Part shown: positions 1,723 through 35,307 of the stretch, piece by piece | How the letters are laid out: each line of letters opens with the position of its first letter | Numbering within the stretch: the first letter of the stretch is position 1 | IMG/VR virus record: IMGVR_UViG_3300028591_000093 | Location: 16,765-80,764 of that record | Length of the DNA: 64,000 bases | Origin: a virus | Taxonomy: Duplodnaviria; Heunggongvirae; Uroviricota; Caudoviricetes | Reading direction: 5' to 3' (one strand) | Program-made: the position numbers and the translations under genes | Notes under the pieces: generated by a model | What the model saw: the letters and a program-made list of their open reading frames with translations, nothing else | Told to the model about the DNA's origin: nothing | Database searches by the model: none

Positions 1723-2023
1723 AACTCTAGTATTTTCAAAAGCTGTGTATAAATTGACTGATATTGAAGCACTAATTTCAGAAGCACCTCAATTTGTTAC
1801 CCTATAGGCTTTTTATCCCATAGCTCTTATAGTTTCCTATAAGTTCAGCATATATTTTCAGCCACTCAAAGGTTGGGCTGTCCAACACTCTTGGGAGAAT
1901 TATATTTATTCATCTCCTATGCGTTACACTACTTACTAGCCTTTCGCTATCTAGTAAGTTAGCTAGATGTTAGCATTTTCAGCCTTCTTCTATTTTGCTG
2001 GATTTATTACCCTAATGTTCCCA

Positions 2024-2659
2024 TTAAGGAGTGCAAGTCTTTACACCTCTGCTCTTGAAAGCAACAACATCTTGCTTCAATTTAGCAGCCAATTCCATGT
2101 AATGAAAATACTCATATTGTTTTGCAATAAATGTAGGAAAGGTCTCATTTCTACCAGTTGCAGCTCCTTTGATACCAACAACACTCTTCATTCTGTAGTA
2201 GTTCAACCAGAAGTAGTTATCACCAGTAATGTGATATTTACCAATGGTAAGACCATTCATACATCTATCTAATTCTCTATAACACAGGTCAGCAAACATT
2301 ACCGTTCCTGGGATAAGAGATGTATACTCCCCAGTTTCTTCATAAGTCCTAGCCATTTCAGTAAATGGCGTAGGGTCAAAGTCTAGACCTTGTGTAGCAC
2401 TAATAGGTCTATAACCAGTGAGTTCATAAGAAAGTTCTGGGTCAAAATACTCTATAGGGTCTCCTATATGTACATCCCAGTCATCCTCTTTCTCAACTTT
2501 CTTAGTTTCCTGAACAGTCTGCTATTCCTTTTTTATATCTTCCTGGGGGATGTCTAGAATAACAGCTCTTCTTTTCTCTCTTTTAGCATCAAGAGCAGCC
2601 GCCTCTTTAGACAACTGCTCTTTTAATGCTGTTTTTTCTTCAGGAGATAACTTACCCAT
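2024..2659 (-). CDS. terL: terminase large subunit, N-terminal ATPase fragment with a P-loop-like GIKGAATGR; one in-frame TAG at 2522-2524 read as sense
   Basis: Frame is open from the ATG at 2659 to the TAA at 2024-2026 apart from a single TAG. No alternative start lies downstream of the TAG before M at 2356. Distance to the P-loop (about 170 aa) matches T4 gp17. The ORF track shows only the post-TAG piece 2024-2356. TAATG overlap with the upstream gene. Confidence 0.5.
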
Positions 2660-3680: not shown

Positions 3681-3944
3681 TTAGTCTTCTCTTCCAGACT
3701 TAACAAGAACTAAATCCTTTGTGGAGAATAAATTCTCTTGGAAAGCTCCTTCAGAAGTAAACCAGAAACAACTGATTCCCTTCAAAGTAGAGATAGAATT
3801 ATCCTTCAATTTATAAAGATTCTTGTCAATCTTAGAAACAACCATAATTGGTCTATTAGGAATGTCCTGTCTCAATGTAACAACATCACCAGGAACAAAA
3901 TATACTTTCTCTTCCATATTATTATACATTAGGATTATTGTCAA
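3681..3944 (-). CDS. hypothetical protein (87 aa)
   Basis: ORF track. Its start overlaps the end of the groES-like gene. Confidence 0.35.
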   Translation of the reverse strand: MTIILMYNNMEEKVYFVPGDVVTLRQDIPNRPIMVVSKIDKNLYKLKDNSISTLKGISCFWFTSEGAFQENLFSTKDLVLVKSGRED

Positions 3945-4257
3945 CTAATAAGAGGTTTTGTTCTGCAACAACCATATATCCAGACTCAAAGAATACAGGT
4001 CTAGCTCCTCTCATATCAAATAAAACATTGTCACCTTTGTGGACAACTTCACATTTATTACCAACAGCAAGAACCTTGCCCCATTTAAAGGGTTGTTCCT
4101 TATAATCAAGCTGACCACTGTCAGGGTTCTCAAACTCACCACCTGTTATTTCAAATTCATCCTCAGCAGCTTTCTTCTCATAAGGATTGAATTCATAAGG
4201 GTCAACTAAAATGTTAGTGAACACTGGAATAAAATTTTCTGTCATATCATTAAGCAT
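3922..4257 (-). CDS. groS: GroES-like co-chaperonin (Cpn10) with expanded mobile loop
   Basis: IPVFTNILVDPYE then loop then WGKVLAVGNKCEVVHKGDNVLFD matches GroES IRPLHDRVIVKR...GEVLAVGNG...VKVGDIVIF. Lies directly upstream of the GroEL-like gene. Confidence 0.55.
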   Translation of the reverse strand: MLNDMTENFIPVFTNILVDPYEFNPYEKKAAEDEFEITGGEFENPDSGQLDYKEQPFKWGKVLAVGNKCEVVHKGDNVLFDMRGARPVFFESGYMVVAEQNLLLVDNNPNV

Positions 4258-5707
4258 TAAGAATTAAACAAGAGCATGTTAAAATAATAGAGGCTGTATT
4301 TACAGCATTCTCTAAAGAAGTCTTAACAACTTCATATGGGTCTATCACACCTTCATTATATAAGTCATTTACCCATTTTCTAGTTTTAAAGTTATAACCT
4401 TGCCAATCTTGTGGGCATGGAATAACTTGTTCATTAGGACCAAAACAGTTCTTATATAATATATAATAAGGAGTAGTCAATACTTCTCTCAAGTACTTCA
4501 ATTGACTACCTAAATTAGTAGAAGCATCAAAAAGTGCTGTTCCACCACCAGGAAGAACTCCTCCTCTTAAAGCGGCTCTAGTAGCACCTACAGCATCTTC
4601 TACTCTATCCAATCTTTCTTTAACTTCTATCTCAGAGTAACCACCTACATAAATAGTGGCAATGCCTGCTGTGAAGTTAGCAAGTCTCTTTCTCTGGAAT
4701 TCTAAGTCTCCTTCATCAAGATTACCTTTTTCTAAAAGTCCTTGAATTGCTGTTACTTTTTCAGATACAGCTTGTTCATTACTTTTATATCCTACAAAGG
4801 TACAAGTATCAGCAGTAGCTACAACTTTATCACAATAAAGTGTATCTCCAAGAATATCTCTAATATCAGAAAGCAGAATACTTCTCTGGATACCAAAGTT
4901 AGGAGCAACTACCATACAGGAGTCTAACTTATGTAAGTTATTTAAAAGATTTATTTTTATCTCAGAATCAAAATCTGGAGCAATAAGCAATAGAGCTTTT
5001 TTCTTTCTGAGAGCTTCATTAGCTACCTCAGCAATTTTGGTAATCTCACTAATCTTTGTATCTGAGATGTATATCATTACATTGTTAAGTACACAAGTGT
5101 TTTCAGCAGTATTTACAAATCTGGAATCAAAGTAACCATTGTCAAATTGAAAACCTTCAGAGAATTCAATACCATCTGAGTTAGTTTTAGATTTCTCAAA
5201 CTTAACAATTCCATTCTTGCCTACTTTCTTAAAAGCTTCAGCAACAAGTGCACCTATTTTAATATCGTTGTTTGCAGAAAGTGTAGCAACTTTAGTTAAG
5301 TCATCAAGAGTAATATCTCTTTTATGTTCTTTTAACCAATCTACAACTTTCTTGCAATCTTCTTGTAAATCTCTTTGTATCTCTATAGGATTTTCCTTAC
5401 TATTACAAAGACTATTTACAATCTTGTTAGAAAGAATGGTAGCAGTAGTGCTACCATCTCCAATATCATTAGAAGTTTTTCTTGAAATATCTCTAACTGC
5501 ATCTATACCCATTTGAACAAAAGGATTCTCATGAGTAACATAAGTTGCTACAGTACTACCATCTTTAGTAACATGTAAATGTCTGCCAAGCTTAATCATT
5601 ACATTCTTACCACTTGGACCATAAGTAGCAGCAACACAATTAGAAACTAAATTTACACCTTTAATTAAAGATTCTCTGCATTCTTCAGTAAATTGTACAT
5701 TTTCCAT
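4250..5707 (-). CDS. groL: GroEL-like chaperonin (Cpn60), shortened C-terminus
   Basis: 485 aa. ATYGPSGKNVMIKL...VTKDGSTVA...NDIGDGSTTATILS parallels GroEL TLGPKGRNVVL...ITKDGVSVA...NDAAGDGTTTATVLA. Confidence 0.75.
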   Translation of the reverse strand: MENVQFTEECRESLIKGVNLVSNCVAATYGPSGKNVMIKLGRHLHVTKDGSTVATYVTHENPFVQMGIDAVRDISRKTSNDIGDGSTTATILSNKIVNSLCNSKENPIEIQRDLQEDCKKVVDWLKEHKRDITLDDLTKVATLSANNDIKIGALVAEAFKKVGKNGIVKFEKSKTNSDGIEFSEGFQFDNGYFDSRFVNTAENTCVLNNVMIYISDTKISEITKIAEVANEALRKKKALLLIAPDFDSEIKINLLNNLHKLDSCMVVAPNFGIQRSILLSDIRDILGDTLYCDKVVATADTCTFVGYKSNEQAVSEKVTAIQGLLEKGNLDEGDLEFQRKRLANFTAGIATIYVGGYSEIEVKERLDRVEDAVGATRAALRGGVLPGGGTALFDASTNLGSQLKYLREVLTTPYYILYKNCFGPNEQVIPCPQDWQGYNFKTRKWVNDLYNEGVIDPYEVVKTSLENAVNTASIILTCSCLILNA

Positions 5708-5713
5708 AATTTA

Positions 5714-6004
5714 TTACCATTTATTAAGAGGACACTTCTTAGAAGCTACCCTCAATGCTGCCTCATGTGGGCAGCCACATCCATTTATAAAACCTATTTT
5801 GTATTCCATAGACAATTCTCCTGTCTTTGGATTATACCATTTCATTCTATCACATTTACCTCCACCTACTGTATCAGTATGTAGAGGACAAGCTAAACAA
5901 ATTGGTTTTCTTTTATCGACAAGCTCCTGTTCTTTTTTAAGAACTCTGTTTGTCCACCCTTCTGCAATTTGTTCAACCTATTCAAAAGATTCTATACCAA
6001 ACAT
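5714..6004 (-). CDS. small Cys-rich protein (6 Cys) with in-frame TAG at codon 9
   Basis: ATG at 6004, TAG at 5978-5980, then an 86-codon open frame to TAATAA at 5711-5716. Missed by the ORF track because of the TAG. Confidence 0.45.
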
Positions 6005-8506: not shown

Positions 8507-8576
8507 ACCTAGAATACCCCACTAATTAAAAAAATCTAACACTGTACTAATGTTCATCTTTGTTCTTATTTTCTAG

Positions 8577-8648
8577 AGCACCTTTCCAGAATCGAACTGA
8601 AATCATCGGGTTACAAAGCCGAGGTAATAACCATTATACTAAAAGTGC
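8577..8648 (-). tRNA. tRNA-Thr(TGT)
   Basis: Manual cloverleaf. Acceptor GCACTTT/AAGGTGC, T-loop TTCGATT, anticodon loop TTTGTAA. One C-C mismatch closes the anticodon stem. Confidence 0.65.
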
Positions 8649-8652
8649 AAAT

Positions 8653-8727
8653 GCTGGCAGTACTGGACTCGAACCAGTAATCCCCTGATTAACAGTCAGG
8701 TGCAGTAACCATTTTGCTAACTACCAG
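8653..8727 (-). tRNA. tRNA-Asn(GTT)
   Basis: Acceptor CTGGTAG/CTGCCAG, anticodon arm CCTGA-CTGTTAA-TCAGG, T-loop TTCGAGT. Confidence 0.75.
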
Positions 8728-8733
8728 TAAAAG

Positions 8734-8806
8734 TAGTCTGGGATGGAGTTGAACCACCGACCTTCATCTTATCAGGATGACAATCTAACCACTGATATAC
8801 CAGACC
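8734..8806 (-). tRNA. tRNA-Ile(GAT)
   Basis: Acceptor GGTCTGG/CCAGACT, anticodon arm TCATC-CTGATAA-GATGA, T-loop TTCAACT. Confidence 0.75.
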
Positions 8807-8812
8807 AAAAAG

Positions 8813-8886
<74 letters not shown>

Positions 8887-8893
8887 ATATAAG

Positions 8894-8967
8894 ACACACT
8901 GATGAGATTTGAACTCATGAATAGCAGTTTTGCAGACTGCCCCCTTAGACCACTTGGGTACAGTGTG
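8894..8967 (-). tRNA. tRNA-Cys(GCA)
   Basis: Acceptor CACACTG/CAGTGTG, anticodon arm GCAGT-CTGCAAA-ACTGC, T-loop TTCAAAT. Confidence 0.8.
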
Positions 8968-8971
8968 AGAG

Positions 8972-9066
8972 TGGGAAGAGAGGGACTTGAACCCCCCTAC
9001 TGCAAAGGCCAATACAACAATTTGTTAAAGCAGGTAAGTTTTACAGACTTGTGTTGTTATCTTCCC
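8972..9066 (-). tRNA. atypical 95-nt tRNA-like gene (long-arm type II or intron-containing; anticodon unresolved, possibly TAA)
   Basis: Perfect 7-bp acceptor GGGAAGA/TCTTCCC and canonical T-arm GGGGG-TTCAAGT-CCCTC. D-loop lacks GG. There are 46 nt between the D-arm and T-arm that do not fold into a standard anticodon arm. Confidence 0.4.
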
Positions 9067-9071
9067 AATTG

Positions 9072-9144
9072 TCTAGATAGAGAGGCTCGAACTCCCGCTC
9101 ACTTGCTCCCAAAGCAAGAATGTTACCCATTACACCATATCTAG
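9072..9144 (-). tRNA. tRNA-Pro(TGG)
   Basis: Acceptor CTAGATA/TATCTAG, anticodon arm CTTGC-TTTGGGA-GCAAG, T-loop TTCGAGC. Confidence 0.75.
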
Positions 9145-9149
9145 AGTTG

Positions 9150-9221
9150 TGCAGCAGAAAGGATTCAAACCCTCCACTCCTGGTTGGAGGCCAGGTATGT
9201 TGTCACTAACACCACTACTGC
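9150..9221 (-). tRNA. tRNA-Gly(TCC)
   Basis: Acceptor GCAGTAG/CTGCTGC with one GU pair, anticodon arm CCTGG-CCTCCAA-CCAGG, T-loop TTTGAAT. Confidence 0.7.
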
Positions 9222-9226
9222 ATTTG

Positions 9227-9298
9227 TGCAGATAACCAGAATCGAACTGACATTTCCAGGCTGGCAGTCTGGAGCACTAACCGTTGTGCTATATCTGC
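9227..9298 (-). tRNA. tRNA-Gly(GCC)
   Basis: Perfect acceptor GCAGATA/TATCTGC, D-arm GCAC-AACGGTTA-GTGC, anticodon loop CTGCCAG, T-loop TTCGATT. Confidence 0.65.
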
Positions 9299-9302
9299 AT
9301 TG

Positions 9303-9374
9303 TGGAATCATAGGGAATCGAACCCTAATGAATAGCTTGCAAAGCTACCATAATAACCATTATATGATGACCCC
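9303..9374 (-). tRNA. tRNA-Ala(TGC)
   Basis: Acceptor GGGGTCA/TGATTCC with GU pairs, anticodon arm GTAGC-TTTGCAA-GCTAT, T-arm TAGGG-TTCGATT-CCCTA. Confidence 0.75.
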
Positions 9375-9378
9375 AAAG

Positions 9379-9451
9379 TATCCCCATCCTGATTTGAACA
9401 GGACCCTGCACCTTGAAAGAGTGCTGACCTAACCAGCTAGTCTATGAGGAC
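9379..9451 (-). tRNA. tRNA-Glu(TTC)
   Basis: Acceptor GTCCTCA/TGGGGAT, D-arm GACT-AGCTGGTTA-GGTC, anticodon arm GCACT-CTTTCAA-GGTGC, T-loop TTCAAAT. Confidence 0.8.
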
Positions 9452-9456
9452 ATAAG

Positions 9457-9528
9457 TTGCAGGGGCAAGAATCGAACTTGCGACCGTCAGCTTATGAAAC
9501 TGCTTAGCTACCACTGCTACACCCTGCA
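9457..9528 (-). tRNA. tRNA-Met(CAT); could be initiator, elongator or Ile2-type
   Basis: Acceptor TGCAGGG/CCCTGCA, D-arm TAGC-AGTGGTA-GCTA, anticodon loop TTCATAA, T-arm GCAAG-TTCGATT-CTTGC. Confidence 0.7.
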
Positions 9529-13856: not shown

Positions 13857-13872
13857 ATATTGTATAATTTAG

Positions 13873-13959
13873 TCGCCCCTGAGGGACTCGAACCCTCACT
13901 TCTTCCAACAGAAGGACATGGTTTTAGAGACCAGCACACTACCATTATGTTAAGGGGCA
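13873..13959 (-). tRNA. suppressor tRNA, anticodon CTA (reads UAG), type II with long variable arm, discriminator A
   Basis: Acceptor TGCCCCT/AGGGGCG, D-arm ACAT-AATGGTA-GTGT, anticodon arm CTGGT-CTCTAAA-ACCAT, variable arm CTTCT-GTTGGA-AGAAG, T-arm GAGGG-TTCGAGT-CCCTC. Confidence 0.7.
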
Positions 13960-15621: not shown

Positions 15622-16511
15622 TTTAATATTGGGTTAAAAAACAAACTCCTGGAGTTACCAGTTCTTAATGTGAAATCATTTAACTAAGGTACTACAAGTT
15701 GCCAAGTATTTGAAGAAATTTTGGTAGCTGTCACAACTGTGGTTTTAGTTTCTGATATTGATATTGGGTCAGTAAGTAATTCAAAACCATCAAGAATATC
15801 AGTATCTGAGGTTGTTATAGTAATAGTATCTCCATAACCAAATCCTGTATAACTAGCATAACCTGTCTGGGAATCATAAAGGGGTTGAGAAGATTCTCCT
15901 CCTGAAGAAAAACTTGTAGACCAAGTTTGACTCCAAGCTTGCCCATCTAATCCTATAGCTGAAAATGTAAAAGAATAAGATGTCTTATCTGTCTATAAAC
16001 TACCTTTTAGCCTAGACCTGTTATATCTAAATATACCATCTCTAGTTAACTTGAAAGTATTAACAACATCAGAAGAACCAATAGTACCAGAACTGTTTGT
16101 TTGAGATGAATATGTGTAACCAGATTTAGCGACATAAGAAAAAGTAAAGTAATCTCCTGTGTGTACAATAGTAGAGTTATTAGTAGCTACATCTCTACCA
16201 TTAACTCTAATTGTATAACTGGTTAAAGCTTTTAAACAACCAGCAGCAGAGAGATTATACCTATATAATTGATTAAATGTTGCATAATAATCTTGGTCTT
16301 GTGTTACTATTGCAATAGCTGGATTCCAACCATTGAAGGTATAATCATATATGGAATCACTAGCTTTCGTTGGTGTAGCACCTTTATAAGAAGGTGTTTG
16401 ACCACTTACATAAGTTTCTGTATCTAAAAGTGAGTCACCACCTGACAAGGATTGTAACCATCTAATTGTATATTCTGCAAAATTATATAAATATTTCTTT
16501 GAATATAACAT
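15618..16511 (-). CDS. tail fibre-like protein with two in-frame TAG codons (15993-15995 and 15684-15686)
   Basis: Frame is continuous for 297 codons from the ATG at 16511 to the TGA at 15618-15620. The ORF track truncates at the first TAG (15993-16511). Ser/Thr-rich composition is maintained across both TAGs. Confidence 0.55.
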
Positions 16512-16837
16512 TACTTTGTGGGTTTAATAGTTATTTCTGGAAGTACATTACCAGGAATACCAATATGTTTAAGTTTACTTAATTTATTGAGTCTATCTTT
16601 ATGATAATTATAAGCTTCTGGATTCTTTTTCTTATAAAAAGAATATGCTGTTTCATTACCTAAATCAATGTTTACAAGGTCTGGTGTAATTACAGTAGAT
16701 TCTGAACCAAGAGAACTTGTAAATGTATAATTCTTATCTTTACCTGTATTTGTAAGAGATGTGATTTGATAGCTCATTTTATTAGGATTATTTGATAACC
16801 ATTGATATATAATAGAGTTTACATCATATGGTGCCAA
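16511..16837 (-). CDS. hypothetical structural protein (108 aa)
   Basis: ORF track. TAATG overlap with the downstream gene. Confidence 0.4.
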   Translation of the reverse strand: MAPYDVNSIIYQWLSNNPNKMSYQITSLTNTGKDKNYTFTSSLGSESTVITPDLVNIDLGNETAYSFYKKKNPEAYNYHKDRLNKLSKLKHIGIPGNVLPEITIKPTK

Positions 16838-16875
16838 ACCTCCTTGCTATAATTTATAAGGTTTATAATATGTCA

Positions 16876-17214
16876 TTATTTAAAAAGTTTAATTATTTTA
16901 CTCCACAAAGAAAGTTTATCTTCAGCATTTTTCCATGCTTGTCTAGCTTGATTTAACCACATTTCTTTAGAATCAAAATCCTAGTCTTCTTTAAATCCTC
17001 CCCATTCATATGGGTCAGCCATGTAAACTTTTGGTTCTGTTTTAGAACCTATTGCTGGCCAAGTTACTTTATGTGTTGTTCCTCTAACACTTTTAGGTGT
17101 AATTAAAACAGTAGTATCACTAGGTGTAGCAGATAATAATTGTATGTCTGCCTTGATTGTATCAGTGGTATTACTATTTGACTTAGTGTACCAAGTTTGT
17201 TTTGTTTTACTCAT
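16876..17214 (-). CDS. hypothetical protein with in-frame TAG at 16981-16983
   Basis: The ORF-track ORF 16981-17214 ends in TAG. The frame continues 34 codons to TAA at 16876-16878. Confidence 0.4.
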
Positions 17215-17533
17215 ATCTGTACATGTATAAATAGTTATCTTCTATTTCTCCTTCTTCAAAGCCTAATCTCTTATAATAGGCAATTAACTTACTTAAATCT
17301 TCCTTAACTCTCAAGTAAGGAATCTTACCAGGGTATATACTAATTGCTTTTTCCAGTAAAAGCCTGCTATAACCCCTCCCCCTCTCTCCTGGAAAAATCC
17401 AAAGGTCAGAAAGACATACATATTTAGGGTCATCACTAAACACACTAGCTCTTATCATACTCAACATACTTTCTGTAAAGATATAAGTAGTGTGCATATC
17501 TCCCCAATCTTGAGTGTGTGTTATAAATTCCAT
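17207..17533 (-). CDS. GNAT-family N-acetyltransferase-like protein
   Basis: GERGRGYSRLLLEKAI resembles GNAT motif A (R/QxxGxG/A). Confidence 0.4.
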   Translation of the reverse strand: MEFITHTQDWGDMHTTYIFTESMLSMIRASVFSDDPKYVCLSDLWIFPGERGRGYSRLLLEKAISIYPGKIPYLRVKEDLSKLIAYYKRLGFEEGEIEDNYLYMYRYE

Positions 17534-17886
17534 ATAATATAAAATTTGGGTACAAAAGTACTATAAAAAGAGTAAAAGAAAAAGTCAAAATAATAAATAA
17601 TAAAATAAGCTTCTCATTGATAAATAAGACTGTTAATCTCATCTTTTAGTAAAAGAAGTATAAGTAGCCCTCACACATGTGTGTGCACATGTATATATAA
17701 TAAGGTGTAAAATAATGAGCAAAAAGAGGTGTTTTTGTGCAAGATTGTGAGCAAAAATATACAAGATTTAAAATTGTATATATGAATTAGATGTGCAAAG
17801 TGTATGGTAATCGGCCCCCTCCCCTCAACGGAGGAAAACCCAAAACTGAATCCTCTTTTAATTTTACAATCCAAAATAAAACCATT

Positions 17887-18177
17887 ATGAGACTCATTGG
17901 CATTCACAGTGGAGACTGCATTATTTGCACTGACTCTACTAGACTTATCTTTGTGGTTAATCCCACAAAGCGTTTTGACTACAACTCTAACCTTGCTACC
18001 TTAAAGGTTATGGCCATAGATATGGCATTGAAGGGAGAGTTAAATCCTGCACGCTCTTTGAAGAAGTTGCACACTATTGTGCACTTACAAGAGGAGCAGT
18101 ATGCTTTGGTGCTTAGAGCAGCAGAGACACACAATGCAGAGATATTTGAGAGTGTGGCAGAGATGATTCTGCCATAA
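17887..18177 (+). CDS. hypothetical protein
   Basis: Internal ATG of ORF 17791-18177. Lies in a GC-richer segment. Confidence 0.3.
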   Translation: MRLIGIHSGDCIICTDSTRLIFVVNPTKRFDYNSNLATLKVMAIDMALKGELNPARSLKKLHTIVHLQEEQYALVLRAAETHNAEIFESVAEMILP

Positions 18178-34397: not shown

Positions 34398-34771
34398 GGG
34401 CCTATTTGGTTTTGACAGCATTATATGATTAATGGGAACATGCAAAGAGAGTACTGCTCTAAATTACGGTACAAAAAATAAATGCTAGCAGAAGAAGACC
34501 TGTTAGATTGGTTGCCTAAGCTTAGGCTTACTTAACTGTAAACTAGCTTATTATGGCATAACCTGGGTAATTATACCTGGAAACAGAAAATAATTGACAT
34601 TGTGGAAAGACACATTTAACTTTCTTCAAAGTATAAATGAAGTGGTGGAGTGGCTAGTTGCCAAACCAATTAGCCCCTGTGGGTAAAGTAACCACATTAA
34701 AAAGAACTAAGCATGTAAAGTTTCCTATTAGTTGATATTGTTGGACCTGGGTTCGACTCCCAGTAGGTCCA
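34398..34771 (+). ncRNA. ssrA: tmRNA (SsrA), about 374 nt. Predicted tag reading frame GCT AGC AGA AGA AGA CCT GTT AGA TTG GTT GCC TAA, giving (A)SRRRPVRLVA
   Basis: 5' GGGCCTA pairs with 3' TAGGTCC plus discriminator A next to the T-arm CTGGG-TTCGACT-CCCAG. The segment AACTAAGCATGTA matches the conserved E. coli tmRNA segment CUAAGCAUGUAG. Resume codon lies at nt 87, preceded by AAAAAATAAAT as in E. coli AAAAAAUAGUC. Confidence 0.6.
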
Positions 34772-35307
34772 CTGGTCCTTGAGGTTTTTGTTTCTCTGTT
34801 AGTTTTTCTACGATTTTTCCTAGCAGAGTTTTTGTTTTTCCTCAAGAGTAGGTCTCTCCATCCCTATATAAAAAAGATGGTATCTATATAGACATAAGTC
34901 CACAATTAAGGAGGTCATTGTAGTGATACAGAATAGGCAAAAGCTATTTGTCAGAGAGCCTTGCTCACTAGGTTAAGACAAACTACATAATAAGCTAGAA
35001 TAAAAGTATGGAGACTCAGAGCACCTAGTATGGCAGTCTATAACCATAGGTATTTATATACTTTATTTTACTGTGTTTGGGCAAACACTTGAAACGGCAT
35101 CCTAGTTTGGAGGTTTAAAAGTTAAAACCTTCTGCGAGCATAGGCATCCCTTCACTGGGAAAGTTATGCTCAACATCTGGTGTTAAGTAGCACCTAAAAT
35201 ATACTTCTTATGTGATTCAATGGTTAATATTGTGTTTTTGTTTGCGCGGTGACTCTAGGCAAGATGGGTTGTGAAACTAGTCTTGCCACCTTCTTTTTCT
35301 AAAGTTT

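Follow-up and report, generated by a model that had tools for sequence, protein, structure and literature searches.

The window, a stretch of 64,000 nucleotides of viral DNA, is very probably part of a crAss-like phage genome of ~169 kb with a group I chaperonin system of its own, in which a groEL gene is followed by a tightly coupled groES gene. The phage chaperonin and co-chaperonin pair is real, and a preliminary description of this DNA had located it correctly. The pair is linked to the terminase gene, and this linkage is conserved in the lineage. The finding places a complete folding machine just ahead of the packaging and structural genes of large crAss-like phages. Our observations concern homology, fold, the conserved ATP site, the architecture of loop and roof, and gene linkage.

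The chaperonin locus

Open reading frames (ORFs) of 485 amino acids (aa) and 111 aa were found exactly where they had been reported, at 4250..5707 for the GroEL homologue (GroEL/Cpn60) and at 3922..4257 for the divergent GroES/Cpn10 homologue, both on the minus strand. The smaller gene had been called upstream; on the minus strand, from which both are read, its position is downstream of groEL. With translation from its first ATG (4257), it shares 8 nt with the end of groEL, stop codon included (ATGCTTAA). A second ATG at 4245, which leaves a 4-nt gap after groEL, yields a 107-aa form, which is reported by most gene callers and aligns better with the relatives than the 111-aa form.

On the minus strand, the tightly packed genes follow each other in the order 96-aa gene, groEL, GroES-like gene, 78-aa gene, 136-aa gene, 195-aa gene, and TerL. 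The location next to packaging genes was thus confirmed: TerL is nearby on the same strand, and the portal gene comes after it. TerL is crAss-like; its identity was ~31% in comparisons with uncultured crAss-like phages and 44% for a contig from human faeces. A metagenomic contig of 169,149 bp (ENA ERZ27256846 k141_4368301) matches the window with 100% identity over part of its length.

A GroEL homologue of reduced length

The 485-aa protein is a phage group I chaperonin and a homologue of GroEL, and the evidence from sequence and from fold agrees. It matched Pfam Cpn60_TCP1 (PF00118) with 125 bits (cut-off, 34.3; E 4.4e-36) and PHROG 5725 (chaperonin groEL) over residues 3-484 (E 2.7e-103). 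Its best sequence matches in the PDB were group I chaperonins of bacteria and mitochondria (9e-79 to 1e-66), headed by a reconstructed ancestral chaperonin of the Fibrobacteres-Chlorobi-Bacteroidetes group; identity to bacterial GroELs was ~33-35% at most. An AF2 model built from a 69-sequence alignment reached a pLDDT of 91.2 and a pTM of 0.80. When this model was compared with the PDB by Foldseek, the top 50 matches were all GroEL/Hsp60 (TM 0.77-0.80). AF2 and Foldseek together revealed the three-domain fold with equatorial, intermediate, and apical domains.

GroEL residues were numbered by alignment to Salmonella GroEL (548 aa), using the E. coli numbering, and the short phage GroEL family was represented by 59 aligned members. 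All ATP-site motifs are present in the window (GP.G, TKDG, DG[ST]TT, D398, GGG414-416, and D495). In the family, T50/K51/D52/G53, D87, D398, G414, and G416 are invariant (59/59). The two ATP-binding motifs named in the preliminary description, GPSGKNV and DGSTTAT, were found as TYGPSGKNVMIK and IGDGSTTATILS.

Compared with the GroEL of Salmonella and E. coli, the phage protein is shorter by 63 aa. The shortening had been estimated at ~60 aa and assigned to the C-terminus, which is correct for 24 of the missing residues (525-548, including the Gly-Gly-Met [GGM] tail). The protein terminates at the equivalent of GroEL residue 524, and the remaining losses are internal deletions. An apical-domain segment of 18 aa (302-319) and residues 107-109 are missing from the window protein and from each of the 59 family members; other deletions comprise 427-436, 466-469, and a few single residues.

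The inter-ring contact residues of E. coli GroEL (K105, A108, A109, E434, R452, E461, S463, and V464) were not found in the 485-aa protein. At five of these sites the residue is replaced (K105 by N, R452 by Y, E461 by P, S463 by E, and V464 by Q). A108 and A109 are deleted in all 59 members, E434 and D435 are deleted in the window, and in half of the short GroEL family, residues 455-481 are largely absent. The window protein also lacks the R197-E386 pair. In its apical groove, Y199 and F204 are retained, V263 is changed to L, and five further positions differ (Y203 to R, L234 to A, L237 to A, L259 to K, and V264 to N). The family shows Ala at L237 in 55 of the 59 members and mainly polar residues at V263 and V264.

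A divergent GroES with a long mobile loop

When used alone, the 111-aa protein gave marginal results. It scored 16.7 bits on Pfam Cpn10 (PF00166), below the cut-off of 21.1 (E 0.0078), phmmer against the PDB returned no GroES match, and no PHROG profile matched it. Thus, the profile search proposed in the preliminary description succeeded with Cpn60 and fell short with Cpn10 for the single sequence, and family-level and structural evidence was needed to establish the GroES identity.

When 1.84 billion representative proteins were searched exhaustively with phmmer, 84 relatives of the 111-aa protein were obtained. A word-indexed search of 5.8 billion proteins detected two, both near-identical to it, and among 50,697 phage records, tblastn detected a single weak match, to an unannotated human-faecal contig that also carries the closest TerL. 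Three candidate relatives from the phmmer search, all very long proteins that scored well, were rejected as spurious: in the cadherin-like repeat proteins P0123 and P0131, a short acidic motif was matched repeatedly, and the match to P0158 (4,499 aa) was limited to a 38-residue stretch.

We then used an alignment of 36 members of the GroES-like family (A1). Its profile matched Thermus thermophilus GroES (4v4o_O) in the PDB over the full length (3.9e-8). Pfam Cpn10 was matched by 22 of the 36 members (best E-value, 3.2e-7), and hhalign of A1 against a small GroES alignment gave a probability of 97.9% (E 4.5e-13). The AF2 model of the small protein (pLDDT 78, with a core above 90) has the GroES beta-barrel fold, and the GroES core motif VLAVGN noted previously is present within GKVLAVGNK. 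The stretch of lowest confidence, ORF residues 30-38 (AAEDEFEIT), is exactly where hhalign aligns the GroES mobile loop. It is very improbable that the 111-aa protein shares only the beta-barrel fold with GroES, as the N-terminal domain of alcohol dehydrogenase does, and has another role, for example as a structural or decoration protein.

According to hhalign, the mobile-loop region is 16 residues longer than that of GroES, with a 4-residue insertion (NPY.) before the loop and a 12-residue insertion after its tip. The latter bears a near-invariant NPDSG. Only two residues are invariant across the family in A1, P in NPY and G in NPDSG, and since both are within the insertions, these probably serve as more than linkers. 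The roof hairpin has been lost through a 9-residue deletion, which leaves VLAVG and GDNVLF only 10 residues apart. In comparison to the I-V-L docking tripeptide of GroES, the window has F-E-I and most relatives have L-x-L, with a middle residue that is not hydrophobic. The acidic central residue in the window counts against the co-chaperonin reading.

The long mobile loop and the missing roof hairpin are shared with T4 gp31 (PDB 1g31) and RB49 CocO. In a structure-based alignment, the identity of the window protein to gp31 was 11%, vs. 28% to bacterial GroES. The enlarged mobile loop described previously as being like that of T4 gp31 therefore resembles it in shape and not in sequence. Its sequence marks the small protein as a diverged form of GroES that is not specifically related to gp31.

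Conservation and distribution of the linked pair

Homologues of GroEL with a similarly short length (449-500 aa; 39-54% identity) formed ~90 clusters, encoded on metagenomic contigs of up to ~177 kb. We examined eight diverged relative loci, whose GroEL is 39-50% identical to that of the window. In all eight, the GroEL gene is directly followed by a gene for 108-121 aa. Seven of the products aligned as members of the GroES-like family, and the eighth, whose gene carries a TAG, matches on translation. At the position of the 78-aa gene, a homologue of 71-75 aa is present in seven of the eight relatives, and the ORF of the remaining one ends at a TAG. A gene of ~192 aa and a TerL of ~760 aa were found further along in the relatives whose contig continues. 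Additionally, IMG/VR locus L017 (48% identity) contains the GroEL and GroES-like pair in the same arrangement. The genomes of the window lineage have ~150-175 kb, and the nearest catalogued relatives are from human faeces.

These data bear on whether the pair is bacterial DNA, derived from host contamination or from a recent capture of host groESL. The ubiquity of GroEL among bacteria and the best PDB match mentioned above, a reconstructed bacterial ancestor, would both suit such an origin. Against it stand the identity to bacterial GroELs of merely ~33-35%, the reversed gene order, the position within a dense series of genes that leads to a crAss-like TerL and portal on a contig of 169 kb, and the ~90 clusters of short homologues on contigs of up to ~177 kb, with the same neighbouring genes at the eight examined loci. 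We consider a bacterial origin extremely improbable and the locus a genuine part of the phage genome.

One GroES-like variant was present on about 500 contigs, and in every source giving a name, the GroES-like proteins are labelled "hypothetical protein." The profile built here would correct this label in a widespread lineage. The pairing of GroEL with this family is not universal in crAss-like phages, because the cultured Cellulophaga podovirus phi14:2, which is classified in Crassvirales, has a GroEL whose gene is followed by one that showed no similarity to the GroES-like family (hhalign probability 0.1%) and no Pfam match.

Comparison with known chaperonin systems

Compared to the bacterial GroEL/GroES systems of E. 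coli and T. thermophilus (PDB 1aon and 4v4o), both subunits are homologous and have the same folds, ATP-site residues, and mobile-loop position. In contrast, the gene order in the window is reversed; the GroEL is 63 aa shorter, with residues 302-319 deleted and no GGM tail, E. coli-type inter-ring contacts, or R197-E386 pair; and the GroES has a loop with 16 additional residues and no roof hairpin.

The closest GroELs of cultured phages are those of Flavobacterium phage immuto and the Bacteroides phages DAC/SJC, with ~34% identity. These phages differ from the window in having the GroES>GroEL order, a full-length GroEL of ~540 aa, and a GroES of 87-101 aa that reaches 75-77 bits on Cpn10. Phages immuto and DAC16 encode GroEL and an adjacent Cpn10. 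In an IMG/VR sample, a Cpn10 gene was found at 65 of 80 GroEL loci, 58 of them in canonical order with a canonical GroES; a bacterial origin is possible for some of these contigs.

Virus-encoded GroEL>GroES pairs with a roofless GroES have already been published (Marine et al. 2017, ISME J; PMC5649160), and the window does not reveal a new principle. In that study, a co-chaperonin was present on 40% of the virioplankton GroEL contigs, about half of them in the GroEL>GroES order (clades "GroEL>GroES-1/-2"). Some GroES clusters from GroEL>GroES contigs lack the roof hairpin, and in 23% of the viral GroES sequences the mobile-loop tripeptide includes a polar or charged residue. The associated structural genes resemble those of Cellulophaga podoviruses (PMC5649160). 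Reversed gene order, a roofless GroES (in some clusters), and polar or charged tripeptide residues are thus common to these operons and the window. The virioplankton operons are marine, whereas the window belongs to a lineage with ~150-175-kb genomes and human-faecal relatives. Features that may be specific to this lineage are the NPDSG insertion, the ~75-aa gene linked to the pair, and the very short length of the GroEL. A literature search for chaperonins in crAss-like phages or Crassvirales retrieved nothing specific.

The preliminary description regarded the presence of both subunits in one phage as uncommon. The 40% of virioplankton GroEL contigs (PMC5649160), 65 of the 80 IMG/VR loci, and phages immuto and DAC16 contradict this. 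The statement is true solely of the few phage chaperonins that have been studied biochemically.

The window phage encodes its own Cpn60 immediately upstream of the GroES-like gene, a difference from the gp31 and CocO systems. T4 lacks a GroEL of its own, and its gp31 partners with host GroEL. Gp146 of Pseudomonas phage EL has been found to function without a lid, and Bacillus phage AR9 has a single-ring, co-chaperonin-independent chaperonin. To our knowledge, phages with co-chaperonin-independent chaperonins, such as EL and AR9, encode no GroES. The window does encode a GroES-like protein, and it possibly shares the single-ring architecture with these phages. Like the window protein, EL gp146 (PDB 6tmt) is a phage-encoded member of the Cpn60 family; the match between the two is partial and weak (3.4e-24, residues 19-237).

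The precedents of gp31 and EL gp146 raise the possibility that the two proteins of the window act separately, the GroES-like protein redirecting host GroEL and the phage GroEL-like protein working without a lid. We consider this unlikely. All examined relatives, with a GroEL identity of 39-50%, have the two genes side by side, and in the window the genes are tightly coupled. Furthermore, the 485-aa protein is far nearer to the group I chaperonins that depend on a co-chaperonin (1e-66 to 9e-79) than to EL gp146, for which the match is confined to the N-terminal part, and groove and loop are both changed, consistent with co-adaptation. There are signs of such co-adaptation in the remodelled helix H/I groove, the altered docking tripeptide, and the invariant residues in the insertions. 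The matched changes in groove and loop and the strict adjacency of the genes favour a cognate pair over hijacking of the host GroEL.

Proposed mode of action

For a cognate pair, we infer oligomeric state, physical pairing of both proteins, substrate, and partner specificity as follows. By analogy to the GroEL/GroES and GroEL/gp31 cycles, the 485-aa subunits would form one or more heptameric, ATP-driven rings, and their apical domains would bind unfolded phage proteins. The 107/111-aa protein would form a heptameric lid that docks via its long flexible loop. With 16 extra residues in this loop and no roof hairpin, the cage under the lid should be taller and possibly open at the top, like that provided by T4 gp31 for the T4 capsid protein. 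The likeliest clients would be large virion or packaging proteins that are synthesized concurrently, because the genes belong to a tightly packed same-strand string that runs into terminase and portal. A dedicated capsid- or TerL-folding system, as suggested in the preliminary description, is plausible by this analogy and by gene position.

The chaperonin might work as a single ring, because the E. coli inter-ring contact residues and the GGM tail are lost; it is this loss that suggests a single-ring machine. Mitochondrial Hsp60 also differs at the inter-ring sites, yet it forms transient double rings. This precedent counts against deducing a single ring from missing E. coli contacts.

A more far-reaching reading is that the group I chaperonin of this lineage is minimal, obligately single-ring, remodelled in its lid docking, and specialised for folding crAss-like capsid or packaging proteins, with the ~75-aa DUF2158-like protein as a third component. 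We put this forward tentatively, as possible rather than probable. If the minimal single-ring reading is true, the pair would rank among the smallest GroEL/GroES systems known and represent a single-ring design that occurs naturally. A compact GroEL with lost ring-ring contacts, combined with a long-looped, roofless lid, could serve as a natural test of the minimum size of a group I chaperonin, and these compact-architecture features of the pair merit structural attention.

Small genes flanking the pair

The conserved 78-aa gene (3681..3917, minus strand) is located directly 3' of the GroES-like gene, from which it is separated by a 4-nt gap in the window. Its product shows a DUF2158/YodC-like pattern; the DUF2158 matches were weak (best E 0.0018) and all below the cut-off, and PHROG 3261 (function unknown) was matched with 9.8e-5. 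This gene may be a member of the chaperonin module.

TAG recoding was also considered for the chaperonin genes and was rejected, because groEL, the GroES-like gene, and the 78-aa gene contain no in-frame TAG in the window. The conserved, Cys-rich 96-aa gene (5714..6004, minus strand), which is located directly 5' of groEL, is readable solely if one in-frame TAG is decoded, as seen in its translation and in the gene call of the 100%-identical contig L015. Its product matches PHROG 13558 (function unknown; 2e-7), and homologues of 90-96 aa are encoded directly 5' of groEL in loci L002, L004, L006, and L007.

Probable TAG recoding, a TerL intron and a split portal gene call

A suppressor tRNA gene of 88 nt with the anticodon CTA is located on the minus strand of the window (13872-13959). 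In relatives (loci L002 to L009), in-frame TAG codons sit where homologues have Gln, as exemplified by KIL[TAG]GIVCRWF versus VLQGIVCRWF. The suppressor tRNA and these TAG positions together point to recoding of TAG to Gln in this lineage of phages. Two genes of the window require one TAG read-through each: TerL, within its exon 1 (2659 to 2043), and the Cys-rich 96-aa gene upstream of groEL (5714-6004); the chaperonin genes require none.

The gene for the large terminase, TerL, also harbors a group I intron of 253 nt with no ORF inside (1790-2042, minus strand), which separates exon 1 (2659 to 2043) from exon 2 (1789 to 100), both on the minus strand. It matched Rfam RF00028 with 35.2 bits (E 2.5e-7), under the gathering score of 50. 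U is the last nucleotide of the 5' exon and G the last nucleotide of the intron. The insertion point falls between ...KSRGV and GAS... in the TerL reading, and the spliced product has 772 aa. The intron is lacking in the 86%-identical relative L001, and DNA resembling it was found in the crAss-like phages cr131_1 and cr7_1 and also in Staphylococcus phages.

Downstream of TerL, the portal gene lies just past window position 1; in the fetched locus L014, it was called as two ORFs of 159 and 547 aa (15848-16327 and 16400-18043). Both ORFs match one common portal PHROG, a sign that a further intron or a stop codon subject to recoding may divide the gene.

Genes accompanying the chaperonin pair

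Directly after the GroES-like gene there is always a small gene encoding 71 to 78 aa, located in the window at 3681-3917 (minus strand) and at the equivalent position in L002 to L008. Its product follows the pattern YFxPGDxV...P.M.V...GIxCRWF...G...E.xFSTKDL and has a weak, sub-threshold match to DUF2158/YodC. It is a possible third component of the chaperonin module.

Among the GroES-like proteins of the NPDSG type, the search matches P0124, P0133, P0136, and others form a subfamily with a predicted N-terminal extension of 55 to 85 aa, as called. The extension begins with a conserved GK.FYMGD, and has a Lys/Glu-rich stretch that looks helical. In the cultured Bacteroides phage DAC16 (locus L013), the GroES gene DAC16_261 (2218-2478) matched Cpn10 with 76.6 bits; in GenBank, both this GroES and the GroEL (DAC16_262) are labeled "hypothetical protein."

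tmRNA and tRNA genes

The phage encodes a tmRNA on the plus strand (34398-34772; Rfam RF00023, 93 bits), for which ARAGORN gave the tag peptide ASRRRPVRLVA. There are 22 tRNA genes, ten of which form an array on the minus strand at 8576-9528.
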